64,000 nucleotides of DNA from Pseudomonadales bacterium (GCA_963667455.2 CAXXFR010000019.1:97181-161180); one strand, 5' to 3'; numbered from the stretch's first letter, positions 1-12,335 are shown. Numbers and translations: made by a program. Notes: generated from the sequence alone by a model not told the origin.

Positions 1-918
1 GTTGACATTGAATCAACGGACGATGTGCTCTTTGAGTGTCTCAATGCTATTGTTCGATTGACGGTTGCGAAGGATCGATTCGAACCAAACTCCTACGTCT
101 GGATCGTTTCCCGCACTGGAGATTTTCGCACCCTGACGTTGCGGTGCATTGCCCCTGGTTCTTGGATTCGAGATGTTGTCAAAGACTTTCGCAGCAGCAT
201 GCGGTTTTCGGGCACCCTCTCTCCCCATGACGTGTACGTCGCAAGTCACGGACTTCAGGGTCCTTTTCGGAGAGTGAACATAGAACCCGACCACAGACGA
301 TTCGGAGTGATGATCGTTCCAGACGTATCGACTTACTGGCGAGATCGGAGCGATAGTGCCGGATCAGTGGCAAGTATCGTGCGTACGGCAAGAGATGGAG
401 CAGTTGGCAATTGGCTCGTTGCCTTCCCTTCCTTTGAGTACATCAACTTGGTAAGTCAGTACTTTCTCGAAGATGAAGAAACACGCGAGCAGCAACGAGA
501 GATGCCAATTAGTGAGCGAAGTGAGTTTATTGGATGGATTTCTCAGGGATCGCGACGCGTTGCCTTCGTCACGATGGGCGGCATATTCACCGAGTCGGTA
601 GACATTGACGGAGATGTCTTAGCAGGAGTCATTGTGATTGGACCGGCAATACCTCCATCAAGTCTGGAACGGGAGCTAATCCGGGATACGTCGGAATTGG
701 GCTATGAACTGGCTTATCGCCAACCAGCTCTTACGCGAGTTGTTCAGGCTGCTGGACGAGTTGTGCGTGGACCGGCGGATCGAGGCGCGATCATTTTGGT
801 CGATCCTCGTTTTACGCATCGTGAGGTTCAGCAGTATTTTCCCAGCCATTGGGATCCGGAAGTCGTCCGTTGCGAGGACTTGGGTGAAGCATTGTCGAGG
901 TTCTCCCTAGCCATTTGA
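1..918 (+). CDS. DinG/XPD (Rad3)-family SF2 helicase, C-terminal part only (5' end lies outside the window)
   Basis: Frame 1 is open from base 1 to TGA 916-918. The translation carries the RecA2/Helicase_C_2-type half: MRFSGTLSP, VAFVTMGGIFTESVDIDGDVLAGVIVIGPAIPP and the motif VI-like QAAGRVVRGPADRGAIILVDPRF. Confidence 0.7.
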   Translation, partial: VDIESTDDVLFECLNAIVRLTVAKDRFEPNSYVWIVSRTGDFRTLTLRCIAPGSWIRDVVKDFRSSMRFSGTLSPHDVYVASHGLQGPFRRVNIEPDHRRFGVMIVPDVSTYWRDRSDSAGSVASIVRTARDGAVGNWLVAFPSFEYINLVSQYFLEDEETREQQREMPISERSEFIGWISQGSRRVAFVTMGGIFTESVDIDGDVLAGVIVIGPAIPPSSLERELIRDTSELGYELAYRQPALTRVVQAAGRVVRGPADRGAIILVDPRFTHREVQQYFPSHWDPEVVRCEDLGEALSRFSLAI

Positions 919-1097
919 CAGATCGGCGACGTTCAGTCTGCGTGGTCAAGCGCACTTGGGCTCTGCTCTCTCACACATACGAAGTTGGGAATTCAGCACA
1001 TTTCCCAGCCCTAGGATCGAATGTCCACGGTTGCATTGGCAGAGCTAGCAAGGCTCAGTTCATGTGACTCTAAACTCGTCGAAATTGCCCTGAAGAA

Positions 1098-1129
1098 GCG
1101 ACACAACTTGTCGCGTCCGTGTGGATACT
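1098..1129 (+). promoter_or_regulatory. Operator/promoter element copy 1: GCGACAcaactTGTCGC + 10 nt + ATACT
   Basis: The palindrome is at 1098-1114 with 6-bp arms. Exactly 10 nt separate it from ATACT at 1125-1129 (GATACT is -10-like). The same architecture and spacing occur at four sites, always upstream of a + strand gene of the array. Confidence 0.55.
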
Positions 1130-1131
1130 AG

Positions 1132-1255
1132 CGTCGAGTCTGATGCAGAACCCAGTTAGCGAATCATCCTAGTAGAGAGTTTTTTCATTCAACAACGAGG
1201 TACTTATTTTGGGGTTTCTTACTGAGGAAACGGGGTTTTGCGTCAGACTCTGACG
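1132..1255 (+). promoter_or_regulatory. Conserved structured 5' leader of A1 (putative cis-regulatory RNA)
   Basis: cgtcgagtctgatgc (1132-1146) can pair with gcgtcagactctgacg (1240-1255). This gives 4 bp + 11 bp with one bulged T and one G:U pair. The block is 81% identical to 2553-2675 upstream of A2. Confidence 0.3.
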
Positions 1256-1423
1256 ACCTCCGAGAGCTGGGAGACCACGACCCTTGACGGATTTCTTCAG
1301 GAGAACTCTCGAGTTGCCACACAATGACCCTCGTTGCCGTCGACTGACGCAGGTACGCAGACATCTCGGCGGCTAGTCGCTACCAAGAACGCAACGTAAA
1401 TTGGCAATGGAGTTAAGAGTCCA

Positions 1424-2320
1424 ATGACTGAGAATGAGACAGACACAGAAACAACTGAATGGCCCCTCTTTGAGGAAGTCAGTAAACGATGTGACGTACG
1501 TAGAGACTTTCCGAAGCTACTGAAGACGATTGAAGAGCACTCGTGCGGGATCGTCACAGCTCATCGCAACTACCCCACAAAGAGACAACGCAGGGCAATG
1601 GCCCGCGATGACGATGGATGGGGAGTTTTGCAGGAAGTTCAAGAAATCGAAGAACGAAATGTTAGCCTGAATCAAGATAGGCAAGAAAGGCTAGTCGAAC
1701 AGATCAACGAAGCGCGTTACAAGAGAATAGAGATTCGTCATATCTGTGGGAACATCGTGGAAGGGTCACTTCTGATTTGGCCTACCCGTGCCCGCAGAGG
1801 GCGAGACGAACCTCTGTTGCGATTCCTCAAGGACTTAAGCAAGAAATTCAATCAGAAGTCCTTCTACTTTTTGCCCTACCAGTCCCCTCCAATCATGTAC
1901 GATTTTCGGGATGGTCAATGGGTACCAGAGCGTAAGCGTGGAATTTCCACGTTGATTGACTTTGAACGAGTCCTGCAGGAACACAAGCAGGTTGCGTACC
2001 GCGATCTACCAGGACCCAAACTACCCAGCATTTCGGCCTGTGAGGTCGTCAAACTAAGCGATCCCATCCATCCCATACTTCGAAGCCAACGGGCAAGTCC
2101 TTCAATGGCCAAAGCCATGTTCTACAGGGATTTTCACCACAAGATTGACGTGATGGACTTCTTGTCGTCTATAGAGAGAGAAAGGCACCTTACCACTCTT
2201 CAGTATGAGACTCTCTTTGACCTTCTTGAATGGGCCGAATCGTCCTTGAGTTGGTTCACCCGGTCTCTCATCAATCTAAGGTATAGAAAACGTAACGATG
2301 TCGGAGAAGACGCGGAGTGA
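1424..2320 (+). CDS. Hypothetical protein A1 (298 aa), member of a 4-paralogue family with N-terminal SCGI(V/I)TAHRN motif
   Basis: ATG at 1424 is preceded by ggag. It shows 58% aa identity to A2 over 105 hand-aligned residues. Shared motifs are SCGIVTAHRNYP, EERN..RQERL, SLLIWP, ARRGRDEPLLRFLKDLSKKF.Q.SF and MDFLSSIERERH. Confidence 0.8.
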   Translation: MTENETDTETTEWPLFEEVSKRCDVRRDFPKLLKTIEEHSCGIVTAHRNYPTKRQRRAMARDDDGWGVLQEVQEIEERNVSLNQDRQERLVEQINEARYKRIEIRHICGNIVEGSLLIWPTRARRGRDEPLLRFLKDLSKKFNQKSFYFLPYQSPPIMYDFRDGQWVPERKRGISTLIDFERVLQEHKQVAYRDLPGPKLPSISACEVVKLSDPIHPILRSQRASPSMAKAMFYRDFHHKIDVMDFLSSIERERHLTTLQYETLFDLLEWAESSLSWFTRSLINLRYRKRNDVGEDAE

Positions 2321-2518
2321 CCGCGTTAGAAGGGATGGAACTGTTGAAAAGCCTCGGATCACCACCTGTCCCCCTAGGTCTGTTGCCTCCTCTAGCGGCG
2401 AGAATCAGGCATTCTTGTGTCGTTTCGAAATGGGAGCGCAGGCAAATACGCTGGGCGAGTGCAAGCGTGAGAGACGCACCCTGAGACAACACATCGCCGG
2501 TAAAGTCACCTTTTAGAA

Positions 2519-2550
2519 GCGACACAACTTGTCGCTACTGTGTGAATACT
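2519..2550 (+). promoter_or_regulatory. Operator/promoter element copy 2
   Basis: GCGACACAACTTGTCGC is at 2519-2535, followed by 10 nt and then ATACT at 2546-2550. Confidence 0.55.
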
Positions 2551-2552
2551 AA

Positions 2553-2675
2553 CGTCGAGTCTGATGCAGAGTCCTGTAAGCGAATCTTCATAGTAGACCG
2601 TTTATTCGTAGATCAATGAGGTACGTGGATTGCCTTTTCTTACTGAGAACTCGGGGTTTGCGTCAGACTCTGCCG
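2553..2675 (+). promoter_or_regulatory. Conserved structured 5' leader of A2 (putative cis-regulatory RNA)
   Basis: The same arms as in copy 1 are present (2553-2567 and 2660-2675). The inner 11-bp helix is identical. The outer 4-bp helix has one mismatch. Confidence 0.3.
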
Positions 2676-2895
2676 ATCGAGGAAGGCCTGTGGTCTGTGA
2701 GCCCTTGTCGAATGCGACCAAGAGAGCACTGGAGTCGCCTTGCAGGGACGAATCCTAGCAATTAGAAGGCAATCTGACCGATAGAGCGGCACCGCCATGA
2801 TTGTCGTTTCCATGGACTGGCGCCGATATGTAGACACATCGACGTGAAAGCACTGCGACGAACACAACACATCAGGGCATTGAGTACGGAATTCA

Positions 2896-3780
2896 ATGAC
2901 AAAACGTGAGACAAAGACTACACGGGAACCTGAATTTGAGGAGGTCAGTGATCGATCTGACCTAAGTAGCGATTTTCCGAAAGTGCTGAAGGCGATTGGA
3001 AAGCGCTCGTGTGGGATCATCACAGCTCATCGCAACTATCCTGACAAGAAACAACGAAGAGCACTCAGTGATCAAAGGCATGGTGACGGAGTATTTCATA
3101 TCGTTCGTGAAATGGAAGAACGAAATGTTCACTTCAATCGAATTCGACAAGAAAGGTTACAGGAACACATAAACGAGTCGTATTACACGCAGATTACGAT
3201 TGATCATCTGTCTAATGACATCTTGGAATCATCAAGCCTGATTTGGCCACTATTTGCCCGCAGAGGACGAGACGAATCTCTGTTGCGATTCCTCAAGGAC
3301 TTGAGCATGAAATTCGGTCAAAATTCCTTCTTCTTCTTCCCGTATCAATCGACTCCGCTCATGTACGAGTATCGGAGCGGTCTATGGACCTCAGAGAGCA
3401 AGTTCGAAATCTCCACACTGGATGACCTTGAACGAGTCTTGCAGGAGCTCAAGTGGGCTGCGTACCGTGATTTGCCAGGACCCGATTTGTCCACGATTTC
3501 AGCATGCGAGGTCATCAGGGTCTGGGGTCCAAGGCAACCCTGGACACGGATTCAACACGGAGGTCTTTTCATGGCAATAGCAATCTTGCATGGGATGTAT
3601 CTCCACAGACTTAAAAAGATGGACTTTCTATCGACCATCGAGCGAGAAAGGCACATTAGTACTCCGCAATATGAGAACCTGCTAAATTCTGTGAGATTGA
3701 ATCGGTTTAATCGCTTTCTCATCAATCTGAAGTACAGGAAACGGCGCGATGTCCATAAAGACGCGGAAGAGTCGAGTTAG
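2896..3780 (+). CDS. Hypothetical protein A2 (294 aa), paralogue of A1
   Basis: It is collinear with A1 and carries SCGIITAHRNYP, EERN..RQERL, SLIWP, ARRGRDESLLRFLKDLSMKFGQNSF and MDFLSTIERERH. Confidence 0.8.
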   Translation: MTKRETKTTREPEFEEVSDRSDLSSDFPKVLKAIGKRSCGIITAHRNYPDKKQRRALSDQRHGDGVFHIVREMEERNVHFNRIRQERLQEHINESYYTQITIDHLSNDILESSSLIWPLFARRGRDESLLRFLKDLSMKFGQNSFFFFPYQSTPLMYEYRSGLWTSESKFEISTLDDLERVLQELKWAAYRDLPGPDLSTISACEVIRVWGPRQPWTRIQHGGLFMAIAILHGMYLHRLKKMDFLSTIERERHISTPQYENLLNSVRLNRFNRFLINLKYRKRRDVHKDAEESS

Positions 3781-4179
3781 TCAAGAACGAATAGAGCTAT
3801 TGAAGACCTAGACACCCCAGTCTTCGCGCCGGAGTCTCCAACGAGAGGGATACGGCTCATCTAGCGGTGCGCGATTGAAGGTTGGCGAGCGGTCTCTCTC
3901 ATCGCACCATCCAGGATCTGATCAGCAGTCACTTCACTTACTGTTCTCTTCAGCCTCGAGAGCTCGTTTTGGTCACTGAGCTAAATCTGTGGACTGTTGA
4001 GGGAAGTGACACCGAAGCGGCTGGAATCATTGAGCCTTCTTTGCGAATTCGTCTCACGTCGAGTGTCGGACACTCTCTGAGACCCGTCGCGATGAAAACG
4101 GGGCCAGAACTCTCGGCGAGCACGGTCATAGGGGAAGCACTTTCAGACAGATCATCTCTTGCGAAATCACTCTCCAGAA

Positions 4180-4211
4180 GCGACACAACTTGTCGTTTGA
4201 GTGTGGATACT
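4180..4211 (+). promoter_or_regulatory. Operator/promoter element copy 3
   Basis: GCGACACAACTTGTCGT is at 4180-4196, followed by 10 nt and ATACT at 4207-4211. It lies about 95 nt upstream of the B1 ATG. Confidence 0.55.
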
Positions 4212-4306
4212 ACCGATGTTCTCGAGCCGTGGGCTAGTGTGGACTCCCGTCCGAGACCACTGAAAATTCAGTCAAATCCAATCCCAAAATCAGATCCAGG
4301 AGCACT

Positions 4307-6457
4307 ATGGTTGACCGATCATTAACCCGCCAGCGACCTACCCGTCGTAGCCATCAAAACGGCGCAAGCGCGGCTAAAGCGCAGATGAGGCCCATCTGTC
4401 GTTTATGGATTCTCCGCTTTTTGTGTGGCTATAGCAAGAACCGGAGGCACCTCGAGAGAAAGGGCGTGTGCAATTCAGACCTAGTTGAACGACTTCAACT
4501 CACGCCCCCCATTCCTCAGTCGGACAGCTCGACGGATGGAGTTGAACTAGGTACTCTGGATTCCGAACTGACGGTGGCTGAACGATCAGCCGAGCGTACC
4601 CTTCCACCCAAGGGACTGAGGGATAACGTGAGACGTGTCGGCAGATTGTTTGGATTGACAGAAGTCGAACACGACGTTCTTTCCCTTGCAATCCTGCTGT
4701 CAACGGATTCCGACCTGATTTCACACTTAGGCGTAGTGAATTCGTTGAACGTGAACGAAGTGGTTGCAATCGTCTCAACCGTACTCGCATGGGATGTCTG
4801 CGAAGTAGAGTCTGCCATTGATTCCGATGGAGGTCTCTACCGGCACGGACTGTTGCGCCCAGAGCATGAAGGGTCCGTTGACAACGGATTGGCCGATTGG
4901 TTGATCCCCTTCAGTCCAGACTTCGCTCGCAACATGATGCGAGACGATCAGAGGGAAGTATCGTTGTTCGCAGACGCATTCTGCATCGATCCTCCGACCG
5001 AACTGACGTTGAATGATTTCTCTTTTCTAGGTCGACCGTTGGACCACTTAAGGACCCACATCCTAAAGTCTGTCGATACGGGACAGCAGGGCGTGAATTA
5101 CCTGATCCATGGAGACAGCCGTACAGGCAAGACTGAATTCTGTCGCGCACTCGCGAGAGACACCGAATTGGTGCTACACGAAGTCTCTGTGGACGGCACA
5201 GACGAAGATGACGACGAATGCACGCGAAATCAGGCCGCAGTAACAATTGCACAGCAGCATGCCGAGAAGTCTCGAGGGCTTGTTGTCGTCGACAATGCCG
5301 ACTACTTGTTCCCAGAAGAAGAGGACAGCTTCTTCTCACGGAGGTCGCGACGACGTTCCAGAAGAATCGGCTTTGAAGAGACAGACAGTTCCATCGAACG
5401 CATATTGGCTTCAAACGGGTCGCCAACGATCTGGATTGTTCAAGACACTGAAGACATTAGTGAGAAATTCATCGATTCATTTGATCGAGTGTACGAAATG
5501 CAGACGCCACCTCCGAGACATCTTCGCGAGATTGTTCGCAAGCAACTTCCGAACTGCAATGAAGAACTCGTGAGAAGTGTCGCGTCCATTGCCGGATTGG
5601 ATTCGTCCTCAATCCAGAACGCACGTGACTTTGCATCAATTGTGGATGGGGATCCCAGTTCCGAGGCTTGGAATGAAGCTTTCATCGACAGCTTCAATGC
5701 TCGGCAGAAAGTACTCGATCGTCCTCCGATCAGGAGAAACGATCCGTCCATGCCAACAGACCTGTACAACATGCGCTACATCAATTCAAACCCCGGGTTG
5801 GATGGAATCATGCAGCGGATTAGGGCAGATTCGGGTGCTCGTATGCTTCTGCACGGACCTCCGGGAACGGGCAAGACCGCTTGGGTCAAGCACTTGGCAC
5901 AAGAGTTGCAAGTCGATCTTGTACAAGTCACGGCATCACAGATTCACAACAAGTATGTGGGCGAAACGGAGAAGAACCTCAGCAAGGTATTCGCACAAGC
6001 CGCCCAATCGGGAGCTCTGCTGTTGATCGATGAAGCCGACACCTTTCTCTACGACCGGCACGGGGCTAAACAGTCCTGGGAAGTGTCGTTTGTGAATGAG
6101 TTTCTAAGCCAGTTGGAGAACTACCTCGGATTGCTGGCGGCGACAACCAACTTTCGGCAGCTCGTTGACAGCGCTGCCATTCGTCGTTTCGGCATCAAGA
6201 TTGAGTTCATGTTTCTCACTTGGGAGCAAATCTCTTGGCTCTTCAGTGCCTATTGCGACCAGTACGGATTGCACATAACCGATGAACGGGAATTGCTTGA
6301 ATTACGTGGCGTTGGCGTCTTGACCCCAGGGGATTTTGCGGCTGTAGACGAACGCAATCGCTTTTGCCCGATTACTACGGTTCGAGAGTTTGTCGAGGCT
6401 CTGATCGAAGAGTGCTCCCACAAACGAGAGAGGGGATCGTTAGTTGGATTCCATTGA
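4307..6457 (+). CDS. Tandem-AAA+ ATPase B1 (716 aa): unassigned N-domain, D1 with Walker A but DNAD Walker B, canonical classic-clade D2
   Basis: D1 has Walker A GDSRTGKT (5111-5134) and Walker B VVVDNAD (5282-5302, no catalytic Glu). D2 has GPPGTGKT (5855-5878), YVGETEKNLSKVF (5948-5992), LLLIDEAD (6017-6040), ATTN and AAIRRF. Confidence 0.85.
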   Translation: MVDRSLTRQRPTRRSHQNGASAAKAQMRPICRLWILRFLCGYSKNRRHLERKGVCNSDLVERLQLTPPIPQSDSSTDGVELGTLDSELTVAERSAERTLPPKGLRDNVRRVGRLFGLTEVEHDVLSLAILLSTDSDLISHLGVVNSLNVNEVVAIVSTVLAWDVCEVESAIDSDGGLYRHGLLRPEHEGSVDNGLADWLIPFSPDFARNMMRDDQREVSLFADAFCIDPPTELTLNDFSFLGRPLDHLRTHILKSVDTGQQGVNYLIHGDSRTGKTEFCRALARDTELVLHEVSVDGTDEDDDECTRNQAAVTIAQQHAEKSRGLVVVDNADYLFPEEEDSFFSRRSRRRSRRIGFEETDSSIERILASNGSPTIWIVQDTEDISEKFIDSFDRVYEMQTPPPRHLREIVRKQLPNCNEELVRSVASIAGLDSSSIQNARDFASIVDGDPSSEAWNEAFIDSFNARQKVLDRPPIRRNDPSMPTDLYNMRYINSNPGLDGIMQRIRADSGARMLLHGPPGTGKTAWVKHLAQELQVDLVQVTASQIHNKYVGETEKNLSKVFAQAAQSGALLLIDEADTFLYDRHGAKQSWEVSFVNEFLSQLENYLGLLAATTNFRQLVDSAAIRRFGIKIEFMFLTWEQISWLFSAYCDQYGLHITDERELLELRGVGVLTPGDFAAVDERNRFCPITTVREFVEALIEECSHKRERGSLVGFH

Positions 6458-6912
6458 CCGGAACATCTCGTTGCTTGGTGAACGGAACTGCTCTTCGGAC
6501 GAAAACGTGCACTGCATCCGGGAACGGTCGAGAAGCAGCATGCAATCCTGTTGTTTTGTTTGACGTACTAGCCTGAATGGTTCGAAGTAATGGATTTCAC
6601 GGTGCGGCCGGTTGGAAGAGCCAGCCGCACAAGACCTGTCGAAGACTGTGTTGAATTGCCTTGTTTTAGATCGGTTGATCTGTGCGCTCGAGGGACGGCT
6701 CGTTGCAACTTCAGCTCCGTTTAGTCACCGGATTTGCATGGTCGGACCGTGCAATTGATGCCGATTTCGCCCGAAATTGATGATTTAGCGCAAAAAGTTG
6801 GGCAAATTACTTAACTTCTCAAGTCCTAATCGGAATATATAGGGGAGAGTTTGAATATTTTGGGTGACTTCCGTGCCAATTGTGCCGAAATTCGTGAATT
6901 CGCTTCGACAAC

Positions 6913-6944
6913 GCGACACAACTTGTCGTTTATTTGCGCATACT
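6913..6944 (+). promoter_or_regulatory. Operator/promoter element copy 4
   Basis: GCGACACAACTTGTCGT is at 6913-6929, followed by 10 nt and ATACT at 6940-6944. It lies about 97 nt upstream of ATG 7042. Confidence 0.55.
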
Positions 6945-7041
6945 GACATCTGTTCGCGCAATTGGGGCGATCATGCACCGGCATCAAAGAGGAGTGGATT
7001 TTCGCTCACGCCCCGTTGTAGCAGCGGATCCAGAGACCATC

Positions 7042-9192
7042 ATGATTGATCGATCAACCGACCGCCGGCGGACAAGCCGTCGAAGTGGACAGACAGACTC
7101 CAATACGGTAGCTGAGCGTGAAGACTCCCTACTTCGTCTGTGGACGCTTCGCTTCTGTTGCCGGTACGGCAAGATGCGCAGGCGCATTGAGAGGAACGGT
7201 CTGACCAACGCAATTCTGGTCGAGAAAATCCAGTCCGCCATGCGCGAGATCGGTTCGCACGACCTGAAAGCCAATAGCGCATTGGACGTTCTAAACTCCG
7301 AACTGAAGATAGCTCAGAGATCAGCCGAACAGACATTGCTTCCTGAGGGATTGCGAAACAATGTGCGGCGCTTGAGAGAGCTGTTTGACTTAACGGAAGT
7401 CGAAGCCGACATACTCACATTGGCAATCATGCTTTCGACCGACCTTGACCTGGCCTCCCAATTGAAAGTGTCGAAATCCTTGACGTTGGACGATGTCATT
7501 GAGATTGTCTCGGTTGTGCTCGACTTTAGCGTTCGCGACGTTCAGTCCGCTATCAATTCCGCTTCAGGTCTGTACAAGCACGGATTGCTACGCACAGAAC
7601 TTGCTCAATCAAAGCGCAAGGGCCTCGCGGCATGGCTGACTCCCTATAGCCCAGATCATGTTGCCAAGATGATGCAAGACAGTGAGAAGGAAGCACTGTT
7701 GATCGAAGACGCGTTTACCAAGGACTCTCCGACGGAACTGGTGTTGGAGGACTTTTCTTATCTCGGTCAGTCTCTTGACTTTCTGACAGCTCACTTCCGG
7801 CGGTCTGTTGAATCGGGAAAGACTGGCGTGAACTACTTGCTCCACGGAGATCGTGGATCCGGAAAGACCGAGTTCTGCAGAGCATTTTCCAAAGAAGTAG
7901 ATCGGGTTCTACTCGAGGTGGCTCAAGTAGAAACGGGAAGCGAAGTCATGGAACTCAAGCAGAGAACGTGCGCGGTGCTGCTGAGCCAGCGAATCGCCGA
8001 GAAACTAGGAGGATTCGTTGTTGTTGACAATGCCGACGAGTTGCTCCTGCATTTCGGGCAACGATATATGAATGCCAGTTTTCGATTTCAAGCAAGAAAC
8101 TGCGAGTTCGACGAGGCAGGCGAACCGTTAGAACGCATGATGGCTTCGAACCCGGTGCCCACAGTCTGGATCGTTCGCGACCAAGATGATGTCTTCGACG
8201 AGATCCTTGCTGAGTTTGACGGAGTGTATGAAATGCAGAGTCCATCGTCGACTCGCCTCAGGGAGATGGTCAAGAAACAACTTCCTGGTTGCGAGGAGAG
8301 TCTCGTGCGAAGAATCGCATCCGTACCGGGTATCAATCGGGCCACGATACATGCCGCTCGTGACTTCGCTTCAACAATCGCCGACAGTCCCCAATCTAGC
8401 GTTTGGGTCGAAGCTTTCATCGAAGCGTTCAATGCACGTCAGAAGATTCGCAAGAAACCTGTCATTGGAACGAATGTCCCCACGTTGCGAACTAGTCTGT
8501 ATCACGAACGCTACGTCAGTTCACAGCCAAACTTGGATGGAGTCATGCATCGCATTGGCGAAGAATGCAGAGCGCGATTGCTCCTATACGGACCGCCTGG
8601 GACTGGAAAGACTGCTTGGGCCGGGAACTTGGCCAAGGAGCTGGATATCGATCTGGTGCAAGTTACCGCATCGCAAATCCAACATCACTACCCAGGCAGA
8701 GCTGAAAGAAGAATCAGGAAAGTGTTCTCGAAAGCCCAACAATCAGGAGCACTGCTCTTGTTCGATGAAGCCGACACCTTCCTCTACGACCGTCGGAATG
8801 CACACCGATCTTGGGAAGTTTCTTTCGTGAATGAATTTCTCACACAGCTAGAGAACTACACAGGATTGATTGCGGCAACGACTAACCTACGGTCACTTGT
8901 CGATAGTGCGGCGATTCGTCGTTTCGACATTAAAGTAGAGTTCAAGTTTCTTGAGTTCGAGCAAGTGACAGGACTCTTTAGAGCTTACTGTGAACGGTAT
9001 GGATTACGCGTTACGGACGAACGAGAACTCGATGAGTTGCGCAACATTGGTGTGCTAACCCCAGGAGACTTCGCCGCCGTGGATGAACGAAGCCGCTTCT
9101 TCCCAATCCGGTCAGTTGAGCAGTTCAGGGAAGCTTTAATCGACGAGTGCTCTCTCAAGCCCGATTCCAATAGGCAATTTGGATTTCAGTAG
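7042..9192 (+). CDS. Tandem-AAA+ ATPase B2 (716 aa), paralogue of B1
   Basis: I moved the start from the ORF-track TTG 6934 to ATG 7042. MIDRSTDRRRTSRRSGQ then parallels the B1 N-terminus MVDRSLTRQRPTRRSHQ, the length becomes identical to B1, and 6934 lies inside the promoter element. Motifs: D1 GDRGSGKT and VVVDNAD; D2 GPPGTGKT, LLLFDEAD, AAIRRF. Confidence 0.85.
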   Translation: MIDRSTDRRRTSRRSGQTDSNTVAEREDSLLRLWTLRFCCRYGKMRRRIERNGLTNAILVEKIQSAMREIGSHDLKANSALDVLNSELKIAQRSAEQTLLPEGLRNNVRRLRELFDLTEVEADILTLAIMLSTDLDLASQLKVSKSLTLDDVIEIVSVVLDFSVRDVQSAINSASGLYKHGLLRTELAQSKRKGLAAWLTPYSPDHVAKMMQDSEKEALLIEDAFTKDSPTELVLEDFSYLGQSLDFLTAHFRRSVESGKTGVNYLLHGDRGSGKTEFCRAFSKEVDRVLLEVAQVETGSEVMELKQRTCAVLLSQRIAEKLGGFVVVDNADELLLHFGQRYMNASFRFQARNCEFDEAGEPLERMMASNPVPTVWIVRDQDDVFDEILAEFDGVYEMQSPSSTRLREMVKKQLPGCEESLVRRIASVPGINRATIHAARDFASTIADSPQSSVWVEAFIEAFNARQKIRKKPVIGTNVPTLRTSLYHERYVSSQPNLDGVMHRIGEECRARLLLYGPPGTGKTAWAGNLAKELDIDLVQVTASQIQHHYPGRAERRIRKVFSKAQQSGALLLFDEADTFLYDRRNAHRSWEVSFVNEFLTQLENYTGLIAATTNLRSLVDSAAIRRFDIKVEFKFLEFEQVTGLFRAYCERYGLRVTDERELDELRNIGVLTPGDFAAVDERSRFFPIRSVEQFREALIDECSLKPDSNRQFGFQ

Positions 9193-9399: not shown

Positions 9400-10053
9400 A
9401 TGAACACGCCGAAACGAACGAACCGGCCTCATCGTAGCGAGTCGGACACCAGCAATTTAGAGCCATCTTTCCAGAACATGCTGAAAGTTCGCCGGAAATT
9501 CTCGTGCGGGATGATCTCTGCGCACAAAATCGTATACGGCCGCAAGAGCCGTCAATCAGCTAAGGGGACAAGTGCTATGCAGGCCGCTGACGGACACCTT
9601 TCGTTCCGAGAACATATACAAGACAATCATTTGCTTCACATCAGGTTATCCGGGCTTTCTCCTGACTGGATGTATGAGGAGAAAAATGAAGAACGTGAGA
9701 AAGAGATGGCTTCTGTCATAAGTCAGAGCGGCTATAACCAATTTCTGATGGAGAGCTTCTTCGCAAGGGTCAAGATAAACTCGTTTTGGGTTTGGAACGA
9801 CGCAGACCCAGGCGCGGGCAGTGGAGATCTTTTGACCTTTCTTCAGCGATTGGCAAAGGATTTCGAACAAGACTCATTTCAGCTCATTCCGTTCAAGAAG
9901 CAAATAACCCTGTACAGACGAGATTTGGACATCAATGGAGCTTGGAATGGCAACTGGCTCACTACGGGAATGGGATACATATCGAAAGTGAAGACGGGGC
10001 AGGTCCGTGTAGCTGAAAGTTATCGTCTGCTAGAGATTACTGGACCTCATTAG
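9400..10053 (+). CDS. Hypothetical protein A3 (217 aa), distant and shorter A-family member
   Basis: An aggag RBS precedes ATG 9400. It shares SCGMISAHK, EEREKEMA, FWVWND, LLTFLQRLAKDFEQDSF with A1/A2 in the same order. It lacks the C-terminal third. Confidence 0.7.
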   Translation: MNTPKRTNRPHRSESDTSNLEPSFQNMLKVRRKFSCGMISAHKIVYGRKSRQSAKGTSAMQAADGHLSFREHIQDNHLLHIRLSGLSPDWMYEEKNEEREKEMASVISQSGYNQFLMESFFARVKINSFWVWNDADPGAGSGDLLTFLQRLAKDFEQDSFQLIPFKKQITLYRRDLDINGAWNGNWLTTGMGYISKVKTGQVRVAESYRLLEITGPH

Positions 10054-10177
10054 AGTCTATTGTCCTATCGGATTTATCACTACCTGAATCGGTGCAAGTG
10101 CCGTCGACTGTGGCGCGTTGACTCTAGCACATACATTTCGAAAACTGAAGCGAACTACAGCTAATGGGAGCGAATCA

Positions 10178-11173
10178 ATGAATGACACTACTTTGTGTTG
10201 CCCAAGTGAACAGGGCACACCTTTCGAAGAGCAAGAATTTGAGACTACGATAAGTGAATTGTTGGAGATTTGTGCGAATTTCTCGTATGGAATATTGTCA
10301 GCACAACGCAATCGGTTCAACTTGAATAGTCTACAGGACTTCAAGAGTCTATTTGCGCGAGTCGAGAGCGGAGTCATCGATCCAGTGCAGGTCGTGCAGC
10401 AGTTGTTGCAAAGGAACCGAACATTGCAACGTGAAAACGCGTTAGTTAATGAAAGGCGGGAGAATAAGCTCGCGTCGGTCATAACCTATGAGCGTCTAGA
10501 TCGATTCAATATTCGAGGTGTCTTTGAGGATTCCGTGGACACTGACTTTTTGGTTTGGTATGACGGTGACTCGGACAACCAGATGGCTGATTTGCTACTC
10601 ACGCTTCTCAAAGAGCAGAGTGCGAATTTCGGTCAACATTCGTTCATCTACCAACGCAAGGATGAGCCGGTGTGTCGATATTCTCGATCATGGAATGGCG
10701 ATAGCGGCCAGTTCGGCGAGTGGCTAGTCGAGAGCGTTGGATCTGTGTCGACGCTCCAAGATCTTGAGAGGTTGTTGGGACGAAGCAAACTGACATCATT
10801 CCTCAATTGGGCTGGTATTGATGTGGAAGCTCGAATTGACTCAGAATCAGGTTCGGAGAAAGCTTCTCCTACGCTCGTAGACTTGATTTCGCAACAGTCT
10901 ATGGGCTACACAATTCGACGAGTTATTGGTCCGATTGAAGGCTGGGATGGAAGTTACGGTTTCTTCTCCGGGTTGGCAAATCAGGAGCGAGATTCGGAGG
11001 CTAAGTGTCACATGGATACGGTGGCGTTCTTGGAAGAAATAGCCAAAGAGCGATATATCTCGACCACGGAATTTGAAGCGATCGCGGATCGACTCGAGGC
11101 GAAGAGGAAAAGGCTTAGCAGGGGTGTGCGTCGGCGGATAGCTCGAAAGTTCCCGTTGTTTAGTGAGAGTTGA
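10178..11173 (+). CDS. Hypothetical protein A4 (331 aa), distant A-family member
   Basis: I prefer ATG 10178 (gggag lies 8 nt upstream) over the ORF-track TTG 10118. It shares SYGILSAQRN, NERRENKLA, FLVWYD, LLLTLLKEQSANFGQHSF, VSTLQDLERLL and AFLEEIAKERYIST with A1/A2. Confidence 0.7.
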   Translation: MNDTTLCCPSEQGTPFEEQEFETTISELLEICANFSYGILSAQRNRFNLNSLQDFKSLFARVESGVIDPVQVVQQLLQRNRTLQRENALVNERRENKLASVITYERLDRFNIRGVFEDSVDTDFLVWYDGDSDNQMADLLLTLLKEQSANFGQHSFIYQRKDEPVCRYSRSWNGDSGQFGEWLVESVGSVSTLQDLERLLGRSKLTSFLNWAGIDVEARIDSESGSEKASPTLVDLISQQSMGYTIRRVIGPIEGWDGSYGFFSGLANQERDSEAKCHMDTVAFLEEIAKERYISTTEFEAIADRLEAKRKRLSRGVRRRIARKFPLFSES

Positions 11174-11336
11174 AGCGACGTAGTTGACTCCCGCCAATTG
11201 GGTGTGCAGTGCACCGTGAAGGGTCGGATTCAGTGATGGGTGAAATCAGCATGGAATTCAATGCCGTTGGCACCAGGTGTCGTTGACATAAGCGAGCGGA
11301 GTATGATTTCTTGAGCTTGACTTACTCCTCTTCCGA

Positions 11337-12335
11337 ATGCCCGCTCGGCAACACAGCATCGATACCACCCTATTCGCGTTGGCCGTTATCAAACGAATCC
11401 CAAGGGAACAGACCATTTCGGCGCAAGAGCTCACGGACCAACTGGAGGAAGCAGGAATTGATCGAAACGTGAGATCAGTGCAACGCATGCTTAAGGTGCT
11501 TTCTTCACACTTCGACATTGACTGCGACACAGATCACCGCCCGCATCGCTACTGTTGGAAACCGAACGCGGCCGCGATGCTGATTCCCATGGTCGAGCAG
11601 AACGAAGCATTGATGTTGCTATTTGCGGAACGATTTCTGGCAAACATCCTGCCGCCGGGTGCATTGCCATCGTTTGAAGGAATTCTCAAACAAGCCCACG
11701 ACATGCTTGTCAACAAGCAACAGTCGCATGGTCAGTGGTTGGACAAGGTCCGCGTGGCTCATCCCACGCCTTTACTGTATCCGCCTGATGTCGATCCGGA
11801 CGTGCTCCGGTCGGTTTCCGAATGCTTATTCGAGAATCGAAAACTGCGCTTGAATTACCGAAACAGGAGAGGGGAATTGAACGATTGGGTGGTTCTTCCG
11901 CTTGGATTGGTTACTCGTGCACAAGTGCTCTACTTGATTTCAAAGTTCGATGACAGTGATACCCACTATCGACTTGCGTTACACCGGATGGTTTCGGTGC
12001 ACCCAACGACCATTCGTTTTGCTCCTCCCGCAGATTTCGACATTGACCAGAGCATCGCGGAGTATGGATTCTCGCCGGGAAATCGCAAAGTCGTGAAGCT
12101 GGAGTTTTATGTCGATAGAAGGGCTGGGAATCACCTGACCGAGTCCCTACTCTCGAAAGATCAGGTCTGCACTGAGCTGGAGCACGAGTACCATATAGCC
12201 GCTACGGTCCGGGACTCGATTGAACTGCGACATTGGTTGTGCGGATTCGGCGACTCCATCAGAGACATATCCATCGACGGAGAACGAGTCAACATCAACG
12301 AGTCAAGAACTTGGTTTGGTGGTGATTTAGAGTAG
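11337..12335 (+). CDS. WYL-domain transcriptional regulator (wHTH - WYL - C-terminal WCX-like domain)
   Basis: The N-terminal wHTH is IPREQTISAQELTDQLEEAGIDRNVRSVQRMLKVL. The central WYL-type segment is LRLNYRNRRGELNDWVVLPLGLVTRAQVLYLISKFDDSDTHYRLALHRM. The C-terminal part is VKLEFYV...IELRHWLCGFGDSI. Confidence 0.75.
   Translation: MPARQHSIDTTLFALAVIKRIPREQTISAQELTDQLEEAGIDRNVRSVQRMLKVLSSHFDIDCDTDHRPHRYCWKPNAAAMLIPMVEQNEALMLLFAERFLANILPPGALPSFEGILKQAHDMLVNKQQSHGQWLDKVRVAHPTPLLYPPDVDPDVLRSVSECLFENRKLRLNYRNRRGELNDWVVLPLGLVTRAQVLYLISKFDDSDTHYRLALHRMVSVHPTTIRFAPPADFDIDQSIAEYGFSPGNRKVVKLEFYVDRRAGNHLTESLLSKDQVCTELEHEYHIAATVRDSIELRHWLCGFGDSIRDISIDGERVNINESRTWFGGDLE

Follow-up and report, generated by a model that had tools for sequence, protein, structure and literature searches.

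A predicted WYL-activator promoter and a strongly constrained leader hairpin upstream of A-family genes in a Pseudomonadales bacterium

Introduction

In a 64,000-nucleotide stretch of DNA from a Pseudomonadales bacterium (hereafter the window), two paralogous genes, A1 and A2, are each preceded by a copy of the same non-coding block. The question raised by this locus is what the repeated sequence does, and whether it does so as DNA or as RNA. A reading made from the sequence alone (the sequence-only reading) had taken the entire block as one RNA leader closed by a long-range helix, perhaps riboswitch-like, perhaps a protein-binding or processing site, perhaps the source of a small RNA. The interpretation favored here, held with roughly even confidence, is that the block is composite: a DNA promoter (1094-1129) followed by a transcribed leader (∼1136-1250). 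Including 1094-1129 in the leader RNA does not hold up, since this segment carries a putative activator box and a -10-like hexamer that are shared with AAA+ genes lacking the helix domain. The genes on which the argument turns are the following.

1424-2320, plus strand: A1 gene (298 aa, no Pfam family); the predicted transcription start lies ∼290 nt before it
2896-3780, plus strand: A2 gene (294 aa, 58% identical to A1)
9400-10053 and 10118-11173: genes B and A3, A-family paralogues of A1 and A2; the motif SCG(I/M)xxAH is common to all four
11337-12335, plus strand: gene for a wHTH-WYL-WCX-type regulator (332 aa; Pfam WYL E=4e-10, WCX E=0.057; PADLOC WYL 4e-18)

Results and discussion

A sharply bounded repeat upstream of A1 and A2

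Positions 1094-1238 and 2515-2659 are 80% identical in an ungapped alignment, with which a gapped alignment agrees, and past a 1-nt indel the ungapped identity is 92% (1233-1256 versus 2653-2676). The 81% previously given for 1094-1257 against 2515-2676 was reproduced at about 80% by both alignments, as were perfect runs of 21 nt (from 1094), 18 nt (1132) and 12 nt (1215); the run given as 13 nt is in fact 16 nt long (1237).

The claim that the leader is better conserved than the proteins requires qualification. The A1 and A2 proteins measure 58% identical, as had been estimated, but 81% nucleotide identity and 58% amino acid identity are unlike quantities. The A1 and A2 coding DNA is 66% identical overall, with the best 60-nt windows reaching up to 87%, and the two copies of the block are therefore more alike than the genes are on average, though no more so than the most similar stretches of the genes. 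The distinguishing mark of the block is that it is non-coding and sharply bounded: identity between the two copies is ∼30% upstream of 1090 and 35-58% after ∼1290. Within the genes, one patch (1777-1866 versus 3243-3332) stands at 87% in 60-nt windows against the coding average, and could be a conversion tract or reflect nucleotide-level constraint.

A probable promoter module shared with tandem-AAA+ genes

The first part of the block belongs to a module that occurs four times in the window.

1098-1114, plus strand: putative WYL-activator box, copy 1, GCGACA-CAACT-TGTCGC with core CGAC-N7-GTCG (motif match)
1124-1129, plus strand: -10-like hexamer GATACT, copy 1, exactly 10 nt past the box and without a -35 hexamer
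2519-2535, plus strand: putative WYL-activator box, copy 2
2545-2550, plus strand: -10-like hexamer AATACT, copy 2
4180-4211, plus strand: box and putative -10 (GATACT), copy 3, with the tandem-AAA+ gene 4307-6457 beginning ∼95 nt further on; not followed by a hairpin domain
6913-6944, plus strand: box and putative -10 (CATACT), copy 4, upstream of the tandem-AAA+ gene ending at 9192; no hairpin domain follows

The 19-mer GAAGCGACACAACTTGTCG, which includes the box, is found at 1095, 2516, 4177 and 6910 (the last with two mismatches), against 0.05 occurrences expected. All four boxes lie on the plus strand ahead of a gene, namely A1, A2 or one of the two tandem-AAA+ ATPase genes, and in 4/4 a spacer of exactly 10 nt lies between the palindrome GCGACA-N5-TGTCG(C/T) and a downstream (G/A/C)ATACT. 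When a further copy on a metagenome scaffold (L019, described below) is included, CGACA-N5-TGTCG is carried by every copy, and the N10 spacing and the nA(T/C)ACT hexamer are identical in 5/5. By motif match, the DriD/DdaA-type box is thus present in the four window copies and in L019, and in 5/5 it stands in place of a -35 at a fixed distance from the putative -10. A sigma-70 scan of 900-7100 found no canonical -35/-10 pair. The box and motif matches, the fixed -10 spacing, the absence of a canonical sigma-70 pair, the nearby WYL gene and the gene context together lead us to predict, with high confidence, that 1094-1129 is an activator-dependent promoter of the known DriD/DdaA kind. The hexamer at 1124-1129 would then be a real -10, and from its position transcription is predicted to start at about G1136 (G2557 in copy 2). 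In the proposed model, the module would drive A1, A2 and both tandem-AAA+ genes. A sigma-E or MerR-type promoter was considered and ruled out by the spacing. The spacers upstream of the AAA+ boxes (3781-4176 and 6458-6909, ∼400-450 nt) are apparently empty, and neither a leader-like match (covariance model R1) nor an Rfam match was found in them.

The WYL regulator of the published DriD/DdaA-type systems is activated by single-stranded DNA after DNA damage. The Caulobacter DriD site ATACGAC-N7-GTCGTAT overlaps the place of the absent -35 and keeps a constant spacing to the -10 (PMC13004042), and didA, bapE, recJ, dnaG and driD are given as DriD-dependent promoters of Caulobacter crescentus (PMC13004042, PMC9186387). 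The window module is similar in its pseudo-palindromic core CGAC-N7-GTCG in the -35 position, its fixed -10 distance, its homodimer-type wHTH-WYL-WCX regulator and its DNA-repair context, which in the window consists of a FAN1-like nuclease and a DinG/XPD helicase encoded upstream. It differs in the box flanks (AAG/GCG in the window, ATA/TAT in the DriD site), in the distance from box to -10 (10 nt, compared with 9 by our reading of the published didA sequence) and in its target genes, as the A family and the tandem-AAA+ genes are unrelated to the DriD targets. The consulted parts of the DriD papers make no mention of a conserved 5'-UTR hairpin (PMC13004042, PMC9186387).

The motif of DdaA, a WYL activator of DNA-damage and defence genes in Moraxellaceae, is CGWCA-N5-TGWCG (PMC12392091), and the window palindrome CGACA-N5-TGTCG matches it exactly. 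For DdaA, a distance of ∼50 bp from the motif to the downstream start site is reported (PMC12392091), whereas the window hexamer implies ∼30 bp, which is the DriD geometry. If the DdaA geometry were valid here, the 5' arm of the leader helix would be untranscribed and the helix impossible in RNA; the DriD geometry is favored because the hexamer is conserved in all five copies. Mycobacterial PafBC promoters (tGTCgg-N10-tAnnnT, ‘sigma adaptation’, PMC8635444) resemble the window promoter in having TGTCG upstream of the -10, no -35 and a WYL activator, but differ in their non-palindromic site, their heterodimeric regulator and their spacing (N9 in the window by the same counting). A response to DNA damage is a property of the PafBC system and a prediction for the window promoter: by analogy, the regulator probably binds the box and probably responds to damage or to single-stranded DNA.

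Across the bacterium's own genome (G000), the palindrome CGACA-N5-TGTCG is enriched, with 21 sites against ∼3 expected (for example C5:13154, C26:3243, C26:49915 and C29:399752). A loose genome-wide search for box plus -10 returned 32 matches without a clear regulon theme. A near-match, GCGACACAGCTTGACG, in which the outer half-site GTCG is changed to GACG, directly precedes a RecJ-like gene; recJ belongs to the DriD targets of Caulobacter (PMC13004042, PMC9186387).

The candidate regulator and its gene surroundings

The cluster encodes its own wHTH-WYL-WCX regulator (11337-12335), which is the candidate among the three WYL genes of the genome and probably the binder of the boxes. It has no detectable sequence match to DriD or to any other solved structure. 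A degenerate half-box, GAAGCGAC-GTAGTTG-ACTC, is located at 11172-11190, ∼150 nt upstream of the WYL gene; autoregulation is doubtful because its outer half-site is lost. On small contigs of the same genome are two nearly identical 323-aa WYL regulators (C20:902-1873 and C38:16024-16995), which match the PafBC/PafC and BrxR structures (E=5e-16 to 1e-3) and are only 23% identical to the WYL protein of the cluster.

Upstream of the array, a gene for a FAN1-like HTH + VRR-NUC nuclease (547 aa) is followed by one for a DinG/XPD-like helicase (762 aa):

L016:14171-17181 together with window 1-918: FAN1-like nuclease and DinG/XPD-like helicase (PADLOC ‘typeIV_DinG’ 6e-37)

No box was found upstream of either at ≤2 mismatches. 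No reverse transcriptase domain was found in any cluster protein, and the locus is thus not of the retron msr/msd type. Genomic neighborhoods elsewhere show a related arrangement: two distant homologues of the tandem-AAA+ proteins (28-29% identity) are encoded in metagenome islands (L027:2683-11360 and L028:2507-10763), in both of which a WYL-WCX gene lies directly 3' of the AAA+ gene and CG[AT]C-N7-G[AT]CG boxes precede several genes, the AAA+ gene included. The two islands suggest a recurring AAA+/WYL module whose promoters hold several boxes. Both islands also hold DnaB-like helicase genes, and L027 an RNase T-like gene.

A long-range helix at the predicted 5' end

Downstream of the promoter, the A1 and A2 copies continue into a domain that is predicted to fold as follows.

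1136-1153, plus strand: 5' arm of helix P1, copy 1 (from the fold), beginning at the predicted start; outer pairs at 1132-1135 optional
1154-1232, plus strand: variable interior of the domain, copy 1, with kept islands AGCG(A/T)ATC (1158-1165) and GAGGTAC (1197-1203)
1233-1250, plus strand: 3' arm of helix P1, copy 1 (from the fold); outer pairs at 1252-1255 optional
2557-2670, plus strand: leader hairpin domain, copy 2, with P1 arms at 2557-2574 and 2653-2670 (covariance model R1, 146 bits)

The long-range helix proposed by the sequence-only reading was recovered, running from G1136-C1250 to C1153-G1233 with optional pairs between 1132-1135 and 1252-1255, and likewise in copy 2. The minimum free energy is -50.4 kcal/mol for copy 1 (z -5.45) and -41.9 kcal/mol for copy 2 (z -2.15), and the L019 copy has z = -4.21. 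All three copies are predicted to form a P1 duplex of 18-21 bp; the start of the invariant helix falls within 1-2 nt of the predicted +1 in 3/3, and its end lies ∼170 nt upstream of the A1 start codon. In 3/3 copies the plus strand folds better than the minus strand, owing to G-U pairs, and this weakly favors a plus-strand RNA. The domain accompanies A-family genes in 3/3 cases and AAA+ genes with the same promoter in 0/2 (covariance model R1); since both AAA+ promoters do without it, the domain is not part of the promoter mechanism.

The inside of the domain is far less uniform. The islands agcgaatc, tagtaga, gaggtac and tttcttactgag, described earlier as conserved, are all present in both window copies, but L019 keeps only agcg(a/t)atc and (c)aa(t/c)gaggtac. 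Base-pair probabilities revealed no inner pair probable in all three copies. A scan found no terminator after the helix, and there is no platform for sequestering a Shine-Dalgarno sequence either. Rfam gave no match over the window at the gathering threshold and, at E≤5, only chance matches of the hairpin to miRNA precursors. The suggestion that the element is riboswitch-like is therefore dropped: the interior is its least conserved part, there is no significant covariation and no conserved inner fold, and terminator, Shine-Dalgarno platform and Rfam match are all absent.

Several other features were considered and rejected. A LexA box in the 5' arm (CTG-N10-CAG) occurs in copy 1 only, an alternative pairing of the 3' arm with the start-codon region is available to A1 only, and small conserved open reading frames on either strand differ in frame among the copies.

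On the opposite strand, all three leaders contain a weak -35/-10-like pair, TTG(A/T)T(A/C/G)-N18-TA(G/T/C)GA(T/A), with 7-9/12 matches:

window 1166-1203 and 2587-2624, and L019:6894-6930, minus strand: -35/-10-like pair, below the scan threshold

Transcription from such a pair may run antisense through the 5' arm and on across the box, and the pair may also be due to chance.

A third copy in a distant organism

A profile search led to a remote A-family member (P0006) and from there to its contig, L019, an ENA metagenome scaffold of 151 kb, on which a motif search revealed the third copy. It comprises CGACACAATTTGTCG-N10-CACACT at 6827 and a hairpin domain at 6858-6988, with box, -10 and helix all kept. 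The gene that it precedes encodes 204 aa, 60% identical to window gene B (9400-10053), and is followed by an A3 orthologue (55%); the neighboring acyl-CoA dehydrogenases of L019 and the window are 54% identical. With neighboring proteins only 54-60% identical, the two organisms are evidently distant. Window gene B itself has neither box nor hairpin upstream (covariance model R1 and motif search). Recent gene conversion, which the sequence-only reading had named among the findings that would overturn its proposal, can accordingly be set aside as the sole cause of the similarity, since L019 carries the element in a distant organism and ahead of a different A-family paralogue.

Across the three copies, pairwise identity is 83-89% in the promoter and 78%, 70% and 66% in the leader domain, and falls to 27-42% in the 45 columns just downstream of the leader. 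The third copy supports the view that the block is a selected non-coding element and not a gene-conversion artefact.

The helix arms are held invariant while the interior drifts

Comparison of the three copies locates the constraint in the helix. Invariant columns make up 33/37 of the arms and 39/79 of the interior (Fisher p=2.8e-5), and TCGAGTCTGATGCAGA in the 5' arm and TGCGTCAGACTC in the 3' arm do not vary at all; the islands AGCG(A/T)ATC and CAA(T/C)GAGGTAC are the only interior ones kept in all three. Among the 21 helix pairs, 15 never vary, three show a one-sided change, one a compensatory change, and two, the outermost, are broken in one copy. The one-sided changes (A-U to G-U once, C-G to U-G twice) are all wobble-valid on the plus strand only, and the single compensatory change, G1133-C1254 to U-A, lies upstream of the predicted start. 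The two window copies had offered no covariation, as was pointed out at the time, and the third copy leaves this unchanged: no pair covaries significantly, and the observed score is equalled or exceeded in 167/500 shuffles.

A stem that stays invariant while its interior drifts suggests that the duplex, or each arm, is recognised by its sequence. Arm invariance is equally the expectation for two DNA sites. The plus-strand folding and a U-G pair conserved in 3/3 copies (from the difference GATGC versus GACGC between the arms) make us lean towards recognition at the level of RNA.

A model for the composite block

In the proposed mechanism, DNA damage would activate a WYL regulator, probably the one encoded at 11337-12335. 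This homodimeric wHTH-WYL-WCX protein would bind the palindrome CGACA-N5-TGTCG, which occupies the -35 position 10 nt from a weak -10 (nATACT), and would recruit RNA polymerase to a promoter that lacks a -35. In A-family mRNAs only, the first ∼115 nt of the transcript would fold into a domain in which the 18-21-bp helix encloses ∼80 nt, with the 5' arm forming the extreme 5' end. The duplex would be recognised sequence-specifically, and not merely folded, and the hairpin would act in cis and post-transcriptionally on the A-family mRNAs. Likely modes are a 5'-terminal hairpin that sets mRNA lifetime, a site for RNase III-type double-strand cleavage, or a binding site for a protein of the cluster; our best guess is a protein-binding or processing site, two of the possibilities originally put forward. 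The start site, the formation of the helix in RNA and the post-transcriptional role are all deduced from sequence. That the rest of the block is a cis-acting transcribed structure, taken jointly with the promoter, is given about an even chance.

RNase III-processed leaders such as those of E. coli pnp and rnc, and stabiliser hairpins such as that of the ompA 5' UTR, also place a near-perfect duplex of ∼20 bp at or close to the 5' terminus of the message, well away from its start codon, where they act on the fate of the mRNA. The window hairpin, with its predicted duplex of 18-21 bp at the predicted +1, would be alike in this, and it shares with these leaders neither sequence similarity nor an Rfam match. 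To our knowledge, leaders of this type are not known for arms that stay invariant across distant taxa.

Alternative readings of the leader

The expectation that two DNA sites would look equally invariant makes it necessary to consider that the inverted repeat acts as DNA, its arms (+1 to +18 and ∼+98 to +115) being paired operators for a second DNA-binding protein, which could repress by looping or as a roadblock and would add a layer of control to the WYL promoters of the A genes only. The two arms keep their sequence without covarying, their centres are separated by ∼100 bp or about ten turns of the DNA helix, the 5' arm reaches into the stretch that polymerase covers at the start site, and the AAA+ promoters do without the helix, all as such an arrangement would have it. 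Neither arm, however, is palindromic in all copies, and inverted operator pairs 100 bp apart are uncommon. Moreover, the GATGC/GACGC difference between the arms in 3/3 copies yields its U-G pair in plus-strand RNA only, the three one-sided substitutions all keep plus-strand pairing, and the plus strand is the better-folding one in every copy. We consider paired operators unlikely on this balance. A slightly smaller chance is given to release of the ∼115-nt hairpin from the 5' UTR as a discrete RNA, acting in trans or bound by A proteins, for example as an autoregulatory RNP, an antitoxin-like RNA or a cofactor RNA. The restriction of the domain to A-family genes (3/3, in two organisms and ahead of non-orthologous paralogues), a 21-bp duplex long enough for RNase III-type excision, and invariant arms that suggest a specific binding protein would all suit a released RNA; against it, neither a terminator nor any other defined 3' end follows the domain, a genome search for further copies of the 5' arm (the arm itself, not its complement) found none, and the A1 model (pLDDT 81) matches no solved structure significantly, RNA-binding ones included.

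Two further explanations carry far less weight. A translated upstream open reading frame in the interior, running into the 3' arm, would let ribosomes open the helix and couple translation to the leader. In 3/3 copies a GAGG Shine-Dalgarno-like motif stands 8-9 nt before a TTG, the positions of GAGGTAC and TTG are conserved, and the first residues are similar (M-x-F-L-T/F). Yet a 1-nt indel shifts the frame in copy 1, the peptides would be 14, 37 and 25 aa long, TTG is a weak start codon, and the 3' arm is invariant at all codon positions while the 5' arm, outside the frame, is equally so; such an open reading frame is highly improbable. The least probable reading, by a small step, is that the block has no function and is a residue of duplication or gene conversion between A1 and A2, or the decayed ends of a miniature transposable element. 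The coding patches of 83-87% identity between A1 and A2 may be conversion tracts, and the arms do resemble terminal inverted repeats. A relic of either kind is difficult to reconcile with the L019 copy, whose neighboring proteins are 54-60% identical and which precedes a different paralogue, with the unequal conservation of arms and interior (p=3e-5), or with a position relative to the -10 that is fixed in all copies. Only two copies exist in the genome, with no target-site duplications visible, where a MITE or transposon would show dispersed copies flanked by such duplications. Through the L019 copy, a functionless block is largely refuted.

The A family and the distribution of the leader

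The proteins behind the leader are themselves extremely rare. Among 1.84 billion representative proteins, a profile search picked out only five A-family matches, and none was found in 400 genomes of the same bacterial family. In word-based searches, A1 has a single close homologue, on a 999-nt contig with 36 nt upstream of the gene, and the L019 orthologue is the sole close relative of B. An AlphaFold model of A1 from a 10-sequence alignment (pLDDT 80.8, pTM 0.81) has no significant match in the PDB. The model partly matches uncharacterised proteins of ∼135 aa, several of them from named podophages, with TM about 0.5-0.63 on the target. An HUH/Rep fold was rejected (Foldseek probability ∼0.1, TM ∼0.2, no conserved His pair). 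Other A-family members adjoin recN (L018) and sbcCD (L019), neighbors that loosely fit a DNA-damage theme. Upstream of the remote member beside recN (P0005), at L018:9735-9775, there is a perfect palindrome, GTACAA-TG-TTGTAC, which could be the operator of a different DNA-damage regulator.

Three copies of the leader are known, in two organisms, of which the bacterium's own genome holds two. A DNA search of 201 genomes of the family gave no real leader match, and covariance model R1, run over the own genome, 400 genomes of the order and the fetched loci, added none to the three. Exact two-arm patterns were absent from the viral contig and genome contig collections, and the interior-island pattern had one chance match among metagenome contigs, inside an aconitase gene.

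A more specific proposal pairs the A-family proteins with the ∼115-nt hairpin as their dedicated RNA, in a sequence-specific autoregulatory or cofactor RNP; we regard this as a tentative and rather unlikely refinement. Were it true, the locus would hold a new RNA-protein module instead of a generic stability element, set in a WYL-controlled DNA-damage/defence island around tandem-AAA+ ATPases.

Biological meaning

Judged by its motifs, the predicted promoter adds one more case to an established class. What follows it, the hairpin domain, looks like an undescribed and strongly constrained 5'-UTR element of very narrow distribution, predicted to act as RNA, and with only three copies known its reach is correspondingly narrow. 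The promoter half places a set of uncharacterised genes under a regulator class predicted to sense single-stranded DNA: four A-family paralogues, with a confident fold prediction and no match to a solved structure, and two tandem-AAA+ ATPases. For these genes without known function, DNA damage thus becomes a concrete and testable inducing condition. The leader half accompanies a protein family that is among the rarest in the databases and, if the hairpin has a specific protein recogniser, would offer a handle on the role of the A family.
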